Below are positions 13,084-62,037 of a stretch of DNA of 64,000 bases, one piece after another. A model generated the notes under the pieces. That model did no database searches and was not told where the DNA came from. It was given only the letters and a program-made list of their open reading frames with translations. This DNA is from a virus (taxonomy: Duplodnaviria; Caudoviricetes). The stretch lies in IMG/VR virus record IMGVR_UViG_3300037400_004242. The stretch is one strand, 5' to 3'. Each line of letters opens with the position of its first letter. Position 1 is the first letter of the stretch. The position numbers and the translations under genes are program-made.

Positions 13084-13238
13084 AGAAGGGATTGCGGAAT
13101 CAGTATAAAACTAAGCCTATGGAGATTGTGTAAGACGTAAAAAGGTATGGCTACGCCATACCTCATGCGATTTCACCGCATACGCTACGGTCAAAGAAAT
13201 AGGAATCCCCCACATGTACATGTGGGGGAGGATGTCAA
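13084..13238 (+). ncRNA. IS200/IS605 right end / TnpB omega-RNA-like element without tnpB
   Basis: GCCTATGGAGATTGTGTAAGAC...ACGGTC..GAAATAGGAATCCCCCACATG-TA-CATGTGGGGGAGGATGTCAA; CCTAT/ATAGG and GATTGT/ACGGTC pairings, two internal hairpins, terminal TCAA. Confidence 0.75.
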
Positions 13239-13283
13239 CAAGTATGGTAGTAGCAAGAGCAAAATTAATAGAAGGAAATAATT

Positions 13284-53373: not shown

Positions 53374-54603
53374 ATGAGTGTAATAGATAAAATAGTAAAA
53401 TATCGAATTCCGAAAAAAGGAAAATATAAATATGCATTTGATTCGTATAAAAAATCTCCTGAAGATAAATATGTTTTTATTAATCAAAGAGAATTGGTAA
53501 AAATTGTAACTGACGAAATTAAGTTTGATATAGAATGTATTTGTGATAAATGCGGGAAACATTTTACAAGAAGATTAGGATTACTAGAATTAGATAGAAT
53601 TTATTGTCAGATATGTATTACAAAAGATACGAATCAAAAACGTTATGGTGTTGATGTTCCGATTCAAAATAAAAAGATTTATGAAAAAATAAAAAATACA
53701 ATGATAGAAAGATATGGAGTAGATAATTCCATGAAATCTCCTGAAGTACGAAAGAAATCACAGGAAACATTAATGAAAAATTATGGTGTAGAACATCCAT
53801 CACAAAGTAAAGAAATTCAAGAGAGAACGAAAAAGACGTTTTTAAAAAAGTATGGCGTAGAATGTTCTTTACAGAATGAAAAAGTAAAAGAAAAAGCGAA
53901 GAAAACATTAATAGAAAAATATGGTGTAGATAATTCAATGAAAGCTCCTGAAGTTCAAGAAAAATTTCGGAAAACAATGCAAGAACGTTATGGAGTAAAT
54001 TATGTTTTTGAAAATGATACTTTATATGGAAAAGCAAAGCAAACCATGTTAGAAAAATATGGTTATGAATTTGCGATTAAGAATAAAGAAATTCAAGAAA
54101 AACAAAAGATAACATGTTTAAAACATTTTGGAGTAGAATATCCTGCACAAAGTAAAGAAGTATTGAAACGGCAAGAAGAAACAAATTTAAAAAAATATGG
54201 ATATAAGCATCCATTAGATTTAGCAAAAAATCGTGGATATATTAGTATTGAAAATATTCGATGTGCTTGTTCAAAACAACAAAAACATATTGCAGAATTA
54301 ATTCATGGAGAAATTAATGTTCCTGTTGGAAGATATATTTTAGATATTGTTGTAGATAATATAAATATTGAATATGATGGTGGTGGACATCGTTTAAATG
54401 TAAAATTTGGCGTATTAACAAACGAAGAATTTGATAAACAAGAAAATAAAAGAAATCAATGGATAATTCATAAAGGATATAAGGTAATTCGGATTATTTG
54501 TCCAAGGGATAAAATTCCTGAAGATGATATTATTTTAAAACAATTGAAAGAAGCTAGAGAAAAATTAAAAAAAGAAAATATAATATACATTACATGGGAT
54601 TAA
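53374..54603 (+). CDS. Free-standing homing endonuclease-like protein (KYG repeats plus Vsr/DUF559-like nuclease)
   Basis: CDKC..CQIC, about nine T..K/RYGV repeats, C-terminal YILDI...INIEYDGGGH...GYKVIRI. Confidence 0.75.
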   Translation: MSVIDKIVKYRIPKKGKYKYAFDSYKKSPEDKYVFINQRELVKIVTDEIKFDIECICDKCGKHFTRRLGLLELDRIYCQICITKDTNQKRYGVDVPIQNKKIYEKIKNTMIERYGVDNSMKSPEVRKKSQETLMKNYGVEHPSQSKEIQERTKKTFLKKYGVECSLQNEKVKEKAKKTLIEKYGVDNSMKAPEVQEKFRKTMQERYGVNYVFENDTLYGKAKQTMLEKYGYEFAIKNKEIQEKQKITCLKHFGVEYPAQSKEVLKRQEETNLKKYGYKHPLDLAKNRGYISIENIRCACSKQQKHIAELIHGEINVPVGRYILDIVVDNINIEYDGGGHRLNVKFGVLTNEEFDKQENKRNQWIIHKGYKVIRIICPRDKIPEDDIILKQLKEAREKLKKENIIYITWD

Positions 54604-58366: not shown

Positions 58367-58396
58367 TTGACAAAACAACATGATATAAGATATAAT
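58367..58396 (+). promoter_or_regulatory. Consensus sigma-A/sigma-70 promoter
   Basis: TTGACA (58367) - 18 bp - TATAAT (58391); overlaps hairpin 58392-58425 that can terminate the late operon. Confidence 0.75.
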
Positions 58397-58430
58397 AGGT
58401 GTAAAGATTATTTTGCACCTATTATTTTTA

Positions 58431-58749
58431 GGACTAATCGTTAAGTACCCAAAAACATACGCAAGTGTGTTTAAACATACTTAAAAGTGGACACCAAGTC
58501 TTTTAAGCACGGCTAAACGATTGGTTTCAAGCCCAAGTGACTACGGGTGAGGAAACTTGCTTCGTAGGATGAACTAAGTCAGGTAGCAAGGCAAAAACGC
58601 ACCTTCGGATGTACCTTCAGTCTGTCGCTCTGTGAAAGCCAACCAAGAAACACGGCTAATGTCCTGCCGTGATAACAGGGAAACTCATGTCCTCTACCCG
58701 ACCTCGGCAAGAAGGAAAATTCCCGTCTTTGACGGTGTTGGCAGAGATG
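58431..58749 (+). ncRNA. IscB omega-RNA (HEARO-like) without iscB
   Basis: GTTTCAAGCCCAAGTGAC, ATGAACTAAGTCAG, CACCTTCGGATGTACCTTCAGTC, GCTCTGTG, GCCAACCAAGAAAC, GATAACAGGGAAAC, CGGCAAGAAGG; intact stems with GCAA and GAAA loops; GC-rich relative to genome. Confidence 0.8.
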
Positions 58750-58751
58750 CC

Positions 58752-58795
58752 CGTGGAATACCGCCCCTATTTGGGGCGGTATTCCATGTATTTGT
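58752..58795 (+). terminator. 16-bp GC-rich hairpin closing the omega-RNA (terminator or IS subterminal palindrome)
   Basis: cgtggaataccgcccc-tattt-ggggcggtattccatg. Confidence 0.65.
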
Positions 58796-58863
58796 TAGTT
58801 AAAATGTGCTTTAGATGCACTTTTAAGTATATTTGTCTATGTTTTTAGAAGGAGGAATAGCAA

Positions 58864-59121
58864 ATGGCATTTGCAGATAATAATAACTCTCTTTATGATG
58901 TTGTTATGAAACAGAGCGATACAAAAGAAACAAAATTTTCGTTGTTGGAGAATAAAAAAAGTGGAGCACTTCGTGCAAGTATTCGTGATTTTACACATAC
59001 AGAATCATATGATGGTCCAACGCGAAATGGCATGATGTTTCAATTGAATACAATTGCGGATGTAGAGAAATATCAGAAAACCTTTAATGAATTTTTTGAT
59101 AAAATTAAAGAATTTTTCTGA
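58864..59121 (+). CDS. PC4/YdbC-like single-stranded DNA-binding protein
   Basis: ASIRDF...GPTRNGMMF motif; 85 aa; GGAGG RBS. Confidence 0.6.
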   Translation: MAFADNNNSLYDVVMKQSDTKETKFSLLENKKSGALRASIRDFTHTESYDGPTRNGMMFQLNTIADVEKYQKTFNEFFDKIKEFF

Positions 59122-59580: not shown

Positions 59581-62037
59581 ATGGTGCAATTAGATTTAGA
59601 TAATGTATATTTAAAAATTACAGGATTAGAAAAAGATGAAGAAATGAAATTATGGAATCTTCTTTCTTTTCCTGTACAAGTTTTCGGTATGCAAGAAGTT
59701 CGTTATCGACATTTATATAATCGTAAAACAAAGAAAACATACGCTGGTTTACTAGAGTATGTGGAAGGACATCTGAAAGATAGGAACATTAAATATATAT
59801 TAAAGGATAATCGTATAAAGCCGCAACAAAATGCTAATTTCAAATTAGTGGATTATATTGATAATGAAAAGAAAATTCCATTGAAACTTAGACCATATCA
59901 GCAAGATATAGTAGATAAGTGTAGAGAACGAGAAGTAATACAAGCAGCTACTGGAGCAGGAAAAGCATTACCATTAGATACAGATATTCTTACTCCAAAC
60001 GGATTTGTTAAAATGCGTGATATTCATGTTGGTTCTGTTGTTTATGATGAAAATGGAGAAAAAACAAGTGTAATTGCAGAATTTCCACAAAACGAATTGA
60101 AACAAGAATATAAAATTACATTTAATGATGGTAGTTATGTGATTTGTTGTAAGGAACATCTATGGAAATATGATGTTAAAACCAATCTCAAACATCATAG
60201 ATGGAAAGTGAATAATATTGTTGATATTATTAACAAATATGGATTAAAAAAGAGTAGGTCATTAAATATATATATTCCTGTATGTAAACCAATTCAATTT
60301 GATAAAAAAGAATTGCTTATTCCACCATATTTAATGGGTGCATTACTTGGTGATGGGGGTTTTACACAGAATACAATTTCTTTTACTAATGTTGAAAAAG
60401 ATATTATTGATAAAGTCAATTTATTGGTTTCAACATGGGGTGTTTTTAAACATAAGAAAAATAAAAGCCATCCACAACTACATTTTGTTGGTGGTGAAAA
60501 TAATTTATTTAAAAAATATATAGAAAATACGTTTCACCATGCAAATTCAAAAACAAAATTTATTCCAAATGAATATAAAATGAGTTCTATCGAAGATAGA
60601 TTAGAATTAATTCGTGGATTAATTGATACTGATGGTTCCATAAATGAAAAGGGACATATAAAAATTGGCTTTGTTAGTGAACAATTAGCAAAAGATTTGC
60701 AATTTGTTCTTCAAAGTCTAGGCTATCGTTCTAAAATGACGATTGACAAAAGAAAAGGAAGAAATGATACGTATAATTTATATATACGTGGTTGTGATGA
60801 TAAATTATTTTCTTCAATAAAGCATAAAGAAAGATTTAAACATCATAAAGTAGCAAAAAATCATTACTACGACATTTTAAAAATTGTTTCAGTAGAACCA
60901 TTAGATAAAAAATCAGAAATGAAATGTATTACAGTTGATAGTCCTTTACATACATATATTTGTAAAGACTTTATTGTAACACACAATACATTGATGATGG
61001 CAGGATGTATTGCCAAATTTAATGTAAAACCTGTTTGCATTTTTGCAGATAAAATAGGATTATGTCAACAATTGAAACAAGAAATGGAAAAATTTCTTGG
61101 TGTTGAAGTTGGTTTGGTCGGTGATGGTCATGAAGACTATAAAGATATTACAGTTATTTCTGTACAATCTGCCGATGAAAAGTATATCCAAAAAGCACAA
61201 ATGTGTTTGTGGGACGAATGTCACCATGTGCCAGCTCATACAATAGTTTCTATAGCGAACAAATGCACACAGGCATATTACAGGGTTGGCGTTTCTGCAA
61301 CACCTTGGCGTGATGCAGGTGATGACTTGCTTATTGAAGCAGTTTTAAATAAAAAGAAAGATGCTATTATTTCTGCATCAAAATTAATTGAATTAGGATA
61401 TTTAATTAAACCAGATATTTATTTTGTACCAATTAAACAAGTTTTTAAAGGAAAAAATTATCAAGATATTTATAAAAAAGCAATTGTAGAAAATATAGAT
61501 AGAAATAAAATTGTTTGCAAAATAGCTTATAATATGTTTATTCGTAATAAACATGTGTTAATTCTTTATAAAAATATTGCGCATGGAGAAACTTTACGTG
61601 ATATGATGGAAAAAAGATTAAATGCAAAGGCAACGCCAATTACTGTTAACCATCCAGTTACAGGAAAAGAACAAACAATTCGTGTAAAACCTGTAGAATT
61701 ACTTTCAGGAAATGATGATACGTTAAAACGTGTCGCAGTTTTTGAAGCAGTTAAGAGAGGAATTTGCCGTTGTTTAATTGCATCAACAATTGCTGATGAA
61801 GGATTAGATTTGCCTATCTTAGATACTTTAATTCTTGCTGGTGGTGGTAAATCTTCAACGAGAGCTTTTCAACGTGTCGGACGTGTATTAAGGCTTCATG
61901 AAGGTAAAACAAAAGCGATTGTTTTTGATTTTACAGATTATACGCCTATGTTACGTAGACATTCAAGAAATAGACAAAAATATTATGAACAGGAACCTAT
62001 GTGGGATATTCATAAATTTAATGTGAATCCAGATTAA
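59581..62037 (+). CDS. Superfamily 2 (UvsW-like) DNA helicase with intein
   Basis: LRPYQ, ATGAGK/T, DECHH, SATP, EGLDLP, QRVGRVLR. Confidence 0.9.
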   Translation: MVQLDLDNVYLKITGLEKDEEMKLWNLLSFPVQVFGMQEVRYRHLYNRKTKKTYAGLLEYVEGHLKDRNIKYILKDNRIKPQQNANFKLVDYIDNEKKIPLKLRPYQQDIVDKCREREVIQAATGAGKALPLDTDILTPNGFVKMRDIHVGSVVYDENGEKTSVIAEFPQNELKQEYKITFNDGSYVICCKEHLWKYDVKTNLKHHRWKVNNIVDIINKYGLKKSRSLNIYIPVCKPIQFDKKELLIPPYLMGALLGDGGFTQNTISFTNVEKDIIDKVNLLVSTWGVFKHKKNKSHPQLHFVGGENNLFKKYIENTFHHANSKTKFIPNEYKMSSIEDRLELIRGLIDTDGSINEKGHIKIGFVSEQLAKDLQFVLQSLGYRSKMTIDKRKGRNDTYNLYIRGCDDKLFSSIKHKERFKHHKVAKNHYYDILKIVSVEPLDKKSEMKCITVDSPLHTYICKDFIVTHNTLMMAGCIAKFNVKPVCIFADKIGLCQQLKQEMEKFLGVEVGLVGDGHEDYKDITVISVQSADEKYIQKAQMCLWDECHHVPAHTIVSIANKCTQAYYRVGVSATPWRDAGDDLLIEAVLNKKKDAIISASKLIELGYLIKPDIYFVPIKQVFKGKNYQDIYKKAIVENIDRNKIVCKIAYNMFIRNKHVLILYKNIAHGETLRDMMEKRLNAKATPITVNHPVTGKEQTIRVKPVELLSGNDDTLKRVAVFEAVKRGICRCLIASTIADEGLDLPILDTLILAGGGKSSTRAFQRVGRVLRLHEGKTKAIVFDFTDYTPMLRRHSRNRQKYYEQEPMWDIHKFNVNPD
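59965..60987 (+). mobile_element. Class 3 intein (341 aa) with LAGLIDADG endonuclease, inserted in Walker A
   Basis: Starts ALPLDT, ends VTHN followed by T; EHLW, MKCITV, VTHN give the W-C-T triplet; MGALLGDGG and IRGLIDTDG motifs. Confidence 0.9.

Follow-up and report, generated by a model that had tools for sequence, protein, structure and literature searches.

Why should a phage carry the RNA of an RNA-guided nuclease at a place where the gene for the nuclease is gone? The DNA analysed here, referred to as the window, is a stretch of 64,000 nucleotides from a virus of the Caudoviricetes (IMG/VR record IMGVR_UViG_3300037400_004242). An earlier note on it had described an orphan omega-RNA of the IscB type, packaged as a transcription unit of its own, with a hairpin where iscB would start, and had offered three readings: a guide for an IscB encoded elsewhere, a decoy for host nucleases, or a non-autonomous IS200/IS605 derivative. 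The explanation that we prefer is the third, namely that window 58430-58849 is a non-autonomous, iscB-deleted ISC element of the HfmIscB type, belonging to the IS200/IS605 superfamily. We are highly confident of the identity of the element, and we consider the explanation as a whole to be quite likely. The features of the locus are collected in Table 1.

Table 1. Features of the locus in window coordinates, with the basis for each assignment.
Feature	Position	Strand	Basis or remark
Phage promoter TTGACA-18-TATAAT	58367-58396	+	Sigma-70-type; 12/12 consensus matches
Putative 16-nt guide TGCACCTATTATTTTT	58414-58429	+	Phage flank DNA directly 5' of the scaffold, outside the element
Inserted element, 420 bp, iscB-deleted ISC (IS200/IS605-type) derivative	58430-58849	+	Absent from G001/L019 and L020
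Left edge of element (transposon RE), starts AGGACTAAT	58430	+
Putative transposon-encoded motif (TEM) AGGACT	58430-58435	+	TAM/TEM analogy, Meers et al.
Omega-RNA scaffold	58430-58746	+	Family covariance model, covariation, sub-threshold full-length HEARO alignment
Guide-adaptor stem, ACTAATCGTT paired with AACGATTGGT	58433-58442 with 58516-58525	+
Omega-RNA core	58523-58724	+	Family covariance model match
Terminal hairpin of omega-RNA	near 58718-58735	+
iscB start remnant ATG CCC	58747-58752	+	Aligns with the ATGCCC/ATGCCA iscB start of Selenomonas/Mitsuokella-type copies
16-bp GC-rich hairpin filling the iscB deletion	58752-58788	+	Terminator scan, fold
iscB 3'-end remnant, about 10 nt, TATTTGTTAG	58789-58798	+	Family TATTGGTTAG, encoding ...YWL stop
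LE subterminal hairpin, presumed TnpA recognition structure	58796-58829	+	Fold; homologous hairpins after iscB elsewhere
Right edge of element (LE), ends TTTTTAGA	58849	+
AGGAGG, Shine-Dalgarno of the 85-aa gene and putative target-adjacent motif (TAM)	58850-58855	+	G001 empty site
85-aa phage gene, 5' UTR invaded by the element	58864-59121	+	ORF list

The inserted element and its site

The boundaries of the element are fixed by a relative that does not have it. The nearest relative compared, G001 (IMG/VR 3300028048_001492, also designated L001 and L019), is 99.2-99.4% identical to the window on both sides of the insertion; it matches the window up to 58429 and resumes at 58850, with nothing in between. 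Its empty site reads ...TATTATTTTT followed directly by AGGAGGAATAGC, a further form of the same junction being ...CACCTATTATTTTT followed by AGGAGGAATAGCAAATG. The junction is scarless, the sole ambiguity being the AGG common to the target-adjacent motif (TAM) and the transposon-encoded motif (TEM). In L020, a more distant relative, the site is also empty, and the promoter and 5' leader are present. These are the empty-site alleles that the earlier note had proposed to look for.

Another relative, L021 (IMGVR_UViG_3300028048_001497), has at the same site a mini-element of about 95 bp that matches at both ends but is devoid of the scaffold. What it retains is some 49 nt from the start and some 45 nt from the end of the element in the window, among them the lineage-specific ATCGTTAA and ACATACGCAAGT. 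Related jumbo phages have this one site in three natural forms: occupied, empty and with the mini-element.

Over about 3 kb of flank on either side, the window and G001 differ at an even background of about 0.7%, the differences nearest to the junctions being 46 and 113 nt away. A co-conversion tract beside the insertion was considered and rejected, since the SNPs are not clustered at the junctions. The pattern fits either a recent scarless excision in G001 or a gain from a near-identical donor.

The ends of the element are those of a mobile family. Copies with the start AGGACTAAT and homologous LE ends were recovered from more than 35 distinct sites, and dozens of IscB-bearing copies share these ends; all copies of the family begin with (A/G)GGACT, or in longer form (A/G)GGACTAAT. 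Discrete ends shared between unrelated sites, the lack of a target-site duplication, insertion next to a motif and subterminal hairpins at the ends are all found, as in non-autonomous IS200/IS605 elements. Together with the empty-site allele, these observations support the reading of the locus as a non-autonomous derivative of that superfamily.

At 32 of the 37 distinct right junctions of full-length copies, the element abuts (A)AGGAG, with a co-oriented start codon after it; the junction motif at these sites and in the window is AGGAG(G/A). The family apparently inserts directly 5' of a Shine-Dalgarno AGGAG, which on the evidence of these junctions would serve as the TAM and would be recognised by TnpA or IscB. 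A TAM of this kind would explain why family copies are found in 5' UTRs and in the orientation of the gene, and it is relevant to users of compact IscBs as editors. We found no statement in the literature of the Shine-Dalgarno as TAM for the HfmIscB-type family, and a search for papers on HfmIscB (including a published TAM) and on IscB in phages gave none that was relevant.

Selfish elements are numerous around the locus. Upstream there is a homing-endonuclease gene (window 53374-54603), and the helicase downstream (window 59581-62037) has a LAGLIDADG insertion of the intein type at about residues 328-406. In L021 a structured, GC-rich insert of about 400 nt (L021:2466-2895), which ends GGATGTCAAC, interrupts the promoter of the same locus. 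The last 153 nt of this insert are 92.8% identical to window 13087-13239, a TnpB-type structured segment that ends GGATGTCAA at 13238, and the two look like members of a second family of mobile, protein-less IS200/605-type elements in this phage clade.

The promoter upstream of the element is indeed the perfect one that had been described, but it does not make the element a stand-alone transcription unit. The same TTGACA-18-TATAAT sequence is present 5' of the orthologous gene in G001 and in L020, both of which are without the element, and it is therefore assigned to the downstream 85-aa gene: by this comparison the promoter is native to the phage gene and not the element's own. The gene has orthologues in L019, L020 and L021, and no match in Pfam or among the PHROGs. 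Transcription from the native promoter would now run into the inserted element, which begins 33 nt downstream of it. In a family-wide test, at least 9 of the 12 consensus positions were matched upstream of 8 of 35 element sites, compared to 19 of 126 control Shine-Dalgarno sites, and at least 10 of 12 upstream of a single element site among the 35, which is that of the window. Promoter capture as a trait of the family was rejected on the ground that a strong upstream promoter occurs at this one site only, and the proximity of promoter and element in the window is an accident of the insertion site.

Of the gene for IscB, the part from codon 3 up to the last codons is missing, and in its place, just after the ATG, is a 16-bp hairpin, as the earlier note had seen. 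What remains of the 3' end has one mismatch, judged by eye, to the intact and delta-iscB copies. The hairpin is unique in the window. Its stem has 10 GC pairs, its tail (TATTTGTTAG) is U-rich but interrupted, and it resembles an intrinsic terminator. Such a terminator would have to be leaky or costly, because efficient termination would starve the downstream gene. In IMG/VR there were no matches either to this hairpin or to the window-specific signature of the terminal hairpin of the RNA. In intact copies the last hairpin of the omega-RNA carries the Shine-Dalgarno of iscB; in the window it reads CCGTC-TTT-GACGG, which is still a hairpin, and the Shine-Dalgarno has been lost.

A second nuclease-less copy with a layout like that of the window occurs in a Selenomonas ruminantium MAG (UBA3715, L053:1490-1945). 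It consists of the RNA, a terminal hairpin in which the iscB Shine-Dalgarno has likewise been lost, and a 10-bp hairpin, different from that of the window, where iscB would be; a TATAAT box is located just 5' of the element start. A tree made to look for an old nuclease-less lineage does not group this copy with the window, which is on a long branch, with identity of at most 75%.

The position of the insert in a 5' UTR, with a terminator-like hairpin 60 nt before the Shine-Dalgarno, is what one would expect of a cis-acting leader or attenuator, in which insert and hairpin would regulate the 85-aa gene and the replication genes downstream. We regard this as very improbable, given that the closest relative expresses the same gene without the insert, and that the sequence is that of a mobile-element family present at dozens of unrelated sites.

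The omega-RNA and its family

The stems that had been described are present: the guide-adaptor stem, in the region of which the RE lies, and further GTCAGGTAG/CTACCCGAC and CACGGC/GCCGTG. The fold of 58395-58800 is far more stable than that of shuffled sequences (z = -5.98), and none of 100 shuffles was as good.

At gathering thresholds, Rfam has no match in the window. The HEARO model RF02033 does align over its full length, with a score of 19.5 bits (E 0.05-0.1) against a gathering score of 83. A covariance model was built for the family from 25 RNAs that lie directly upstream of intact iscB, with the window excluded. It gave 199.9 bits (E about 8e-41) at 58523-58724, and this is the sole match in the 64 kb. 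The covariance-model check proposed in the earlier note therefore came out below threshold for Rfam HEARO and strongly positive for the family model, and the description of the RNA as an IscB-type omega-RNA, related to HEARO, stands.

Six members of the subfamily have HEARO scores of 24-38 bits, and four of these adjoin an intact iscB. Since RNAs next to intact iscB reach only such scores, the sub-threshold score is a property of the subfamily and not a sign of decay. The family model in turn scores canonical HEARO RNAs weakly, at 21-32 bits. The Rfam HEARO model misses the whole subfamily, and its RNAs consequently go unannotated in phage genomes.

The structure is conserved by covariation. 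In an alignment of 17 sequences with the relatives, 95.9% of cells are paired, and changes on both sides are found in 41 of 67 pairs; none of 500 shuffles was as high, and slid controls had 33-45% of cells paired and 5-12 pairs changed on both sides. In the window, 63 of the 67 consensus pairs are canonical. It differs from the consensus at 25 pairs, of which 13 are doubly compensated, 8 are changed on one side with pairing kept, and 4 are broken. Canonical pairing is thus kept at 21 of the 25 differing pairs. One of the four broken pairs, in the terminal hairpin, is an artefact of register. The CUUCGG/CUGUCG helix accounts for two others, U.C and U.U; because L060, an intact Selenomonas copy, has them as well, their reading as decay was rejected. 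By sequence comparison, then, the window has a structurally intact omega-RNA of the HfmIscB-type IscB family. No close relative of it was found among the sampled copies, to which identity is at most 75%. Divergence of this structure-preserving kind is not datable, and it speaks neither for nor against an inert relic.

The relatives of the RNA are, for the most part, attached to a nuclease. Using blastn, RNA-coding stretches 68-76% identical to that of the window were found in two human-gut phage records and in two Staphylococcus phages of the genus Baoshanvirus. In the Staphylococcus phages, and in many phage contigs from gut and rumen, related RNAs lie directly upstream of ORFs of 409-416 aa with RRXRR, HNH and RuvC domains. 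The match in the Staphylococcus phages is directly upstream of an IscB of 411 aa that has RRXRR, HNH and RuvC matches. These two phages, vB_SauM_JDF86 (L004:3237-4472) and vB_SsapH-Golestan101-M (L006:3236-4471), have the full IscB and omega-RNA at different genome positions, and the labels given to the protein in their records are just 'hypothetical protein' and 'HNH endonuclease'. Over its whole length, the IscB of L007 matches HfmIscB (PDB 9k2z), with an E-value of 2e-194.

Pattern scans extended the family to 12 + 29 loci in IMG/VR, 14 in bacterial genomes and 84 in metagenomes; the bacterial carriers include Selenomonas ruminantium, Mitsuokella, Sharpea, Lachnospira and Lacrimispora. We classified 131 pattern matches. 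A full-length IscB of about 413 aa follows the RNA in 74, contig ends cut off a further 33, and the other 24 are frameshifted or internally deleted.

Derivatives with a deleted iscB are, judged by these copies, common and independent. The best defined is a 506-bp delta-iscB form, in which the omega-RNA is followed by 44 codons that join IscB residues 1-20 to 385-411. It occurs at no fewer than four different sites, three of the copies (L113, L127, L137) being in one large phage contig of 301 kb from a metagenome; further loci are L003, L005, L084, L102 and L148, and in L084 the left and right flanks come from two different sites. Because this form is found at several sites, RNA-bearing copies without the nuclease would still be mobilisable. 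Other deletion copies have differing ORF stubs, or have lost the ORF entirely (L073, L131) or part of the RNA (L109, L021). The scaffold is thus not universally retained, having been lost in L021 and L109.

These observations bear on the possibility that the element in the window is an inert relic, in which iscB was deleted recently, the RNA is intact for lack of time, and the remaining DNA is at most a substrate for TnpA. The many independent frameshifts and deletions in the family, which are of all sizes and in some cases remove the scaffold, are what this predicts, as is the fact that no partner genes were found in the window. Less easily accommodated is the polymorphism between occupied and empty sites in genomes that are 99% identical, which indicates a very recent precise excision or gain, and therefore recent activity of a trans-acting factor on the element. 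We give an inert relic about even chances, or slightly better.

Guide, target and partners

The anatomy of IscB elements has been described by Meers et al. 2023 (10.1101/2023.03.14.532601): the omega-RNA lies upstream of iscB with the RE as its boundary, the guide is flanking DNA, the TAM is directly next to the LE, and the occupied site is protected by a transposon motif slightly different from the TAM. The layout in the window fits this description. By analogy, and from the element boundary given by the G001 empty site, nucleotides 58414-58429 would serve as the guide. The guide had previously been placed at about 58403-58430; its location just 5' of the scaffold was correct, and the position is refined here.

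A search of IMG/VR with the guide followed by AGGAG, as had been suggested, gave exactly one occurrence, which is at the empty site of G001. The guide thus matches the empty allele exactly, and the role proposed for OMEGA systems, to cut the vacant site and so be retained or copied, becomes testable phage against phage. In the occupied site, AGGACT stands in place of the TAM AGGAGG, and by the same analogy this would spare it from cleavage.

On the basis of these observations, we propose the following mechanism. The element has inserted directly 5' of the Shine-Dalgarno AGGAG, in the orientation of the gene, between the promoter and the ribosome-binding site of the 85-aa gene. The phage promoter would then give an RNA of about 390 nt, made up of a leader of about 11 nt, the 16-nt guide copied from the flank and the omega-RNA scaffold, and the transcript would probably end at the hairpin that replaces iscB. 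This RNA is expected to be inactive alone, and to need a compatible IscB in trans, from a co-infecting phage, from the host or from another part of a genome of about 0.5 Mb. With such an IscB, it would direct cleavage of the unoccupied allele, the one found in the 99%-identical sister phage, where AGGAGG comes after the guide match. Cutting there would help the element to be retained or to home, and the occupied site would be protected by the replacement of the TAM with AGGACT.

Where might the partner proteins come from? A tblastn search of the 64-kb window with family IscB found no iscB, and the word 'orphan' in the earlier note is apt for the window. A corresponding search with the TnpA of G006 found no tnpA in the window, and an RRXRR search found no iscB in the approximately 42 kb of G001. 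Two relatives, G005 and G006, do encode IscBs, which are 32-34% identical to the family IscB and lie behind canonical HEARO RNAs scoring 115-125 bits; G006 also encodes a Y1 transposase of 158 aa (Y1_Tnp, 123.8 bits). The coordinates for these genes of the relatives are L048:1205-2742 (G006), L049:1242-~2850 (G005) and L050:1426-1902, the HEARO RNAs with their IscB genes being some 10-22 kb downstream of the orthologous site. That the IscBs of G005 and G006 are partners of the RNA in the window is unlikely, in view of the 32-34% identity, the canonical HEAROs and the absence of blastn similarity between these and the window element. According to CheckV, the contigs of the relatives are 8-35% complete, which suggests a full phage genome near 0.5 Mb.

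Of the uses first suggested, we found no evidence for a decoy, and none for a guide serving an IscB elsewhere in the genome, the IscBs of the relatives being of the different, canonical-HEARO type.

A stronger version of trans use is that the RNA has been selected as a guide. According to this, a nuclease-less omega-RNA is kept under a strong early promoter and loaded by an IscB that the host or a co-infecting phage provides, and the IscB then cuts competitor genomes that have the empty site; the result would be an RNA-guided device for homing or exclusion between jumbo phages, split between genomes. The elements nearest in sequence are of the Selenomonadaceae type, and the similarity of the element ends suggests a host in that family. 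Several observations are in keeping with selection as a guide. The scaffold is as intact as in IscB-linked copies, and no other family site has a consensus promoter 33 nt upstream. There is a perfect natural target in the sister phage, whose contig name shares a metagenome number with that of another relative. The Selenomonas MAG has an analogous orphan of RNA plus hairpin (L053), whose terminal hairpin also lacks the iscB Shine-Dalgarno, and trans use of stand-alone omega-RNAs is documented. Against this, the window and the relatives examined yielded no cognate IscB, L053 and the window do not group in the tree, so that an old orphan lineage is not supported, and the mini-element of L021 has lost the scaffold at the very same site. 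Moreover, the even distribution of SNPs over about 3 kb on each side gives no sign of homing from a diverged donor. We therefore consider selection as a trans-acting guide to be unlikely, and the same applies to the split homing or exclusion device. Were it true, the use of the Shine-Dalgarno as TAM would guarantee both a target and transcription.

Whether through selection or not, it is possible, though somewhat doubtful, that the RNA in the window is still used by an IscB.

Comparison with known systems

Stand-alone omega-RNAs are already known, and the element in the window differs from them in its particulars. They work in trans (Altae-Tran et al. 2021, as cited in PMC10691335 and PMC9581776), and PATEs that encode omega-RNAs have been described in the literature. 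Because both are documented, the element is of a known kind. Like the stand-alone omega-RNAs and PATE-like derivatives (Altae-Tran et al.; Meers et al.), it has mobilised ends that enclose an omega-RNA and no gene for an effector or transposase, its guide would come from the flank, and it would require IscB and TnpA in trans. Unlike them, it is located in the 5' UTR of a jumbo phage, has a terminator-like hairpin in place of iscB, and is without a same-family, effector-containing copy in the available parts of the genome.

With HfmIscB-type elements (PDB 9k2z) it shares a homologous omega-RNA, the RE start AGGACTAAT and insertion next to AGGAG, and its LE end is like that of the Selenomonas copies (CTATGTTTTTAG). 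It differs from them in having neither the IscB ORF of about 413 aa nor its Shine-Dalgarno, and in being at most 75% identical to any sampled copy.

The RNA resembles Rfam HEARO RF02033 in the conserved core motifs CACC...GAUG...CAGUC...GCUCUG and in the AGCC/GGC long-range pairing. Canonical HEARO RNAs in the related phages nevertheless score 115-125 bits, whereas the window scores 19.5 and the whole subfamily 24-38 bits.

Finally, the element is comparable to phage homing endonuclease genes and inteins, being a selfish element of a phage that is predicted to target close relatives at their unoccupied allele. In contrast to these, it would recognise its target by means of an RNA, and guide and nuclease are not encoded together. 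The features that set it apart from the systems above are its setting in a jumbo phage, the apparent use of a Shine-Dalgarno as TAM, the empty target in a sister phage, and the hairpin that has replaced iscB.
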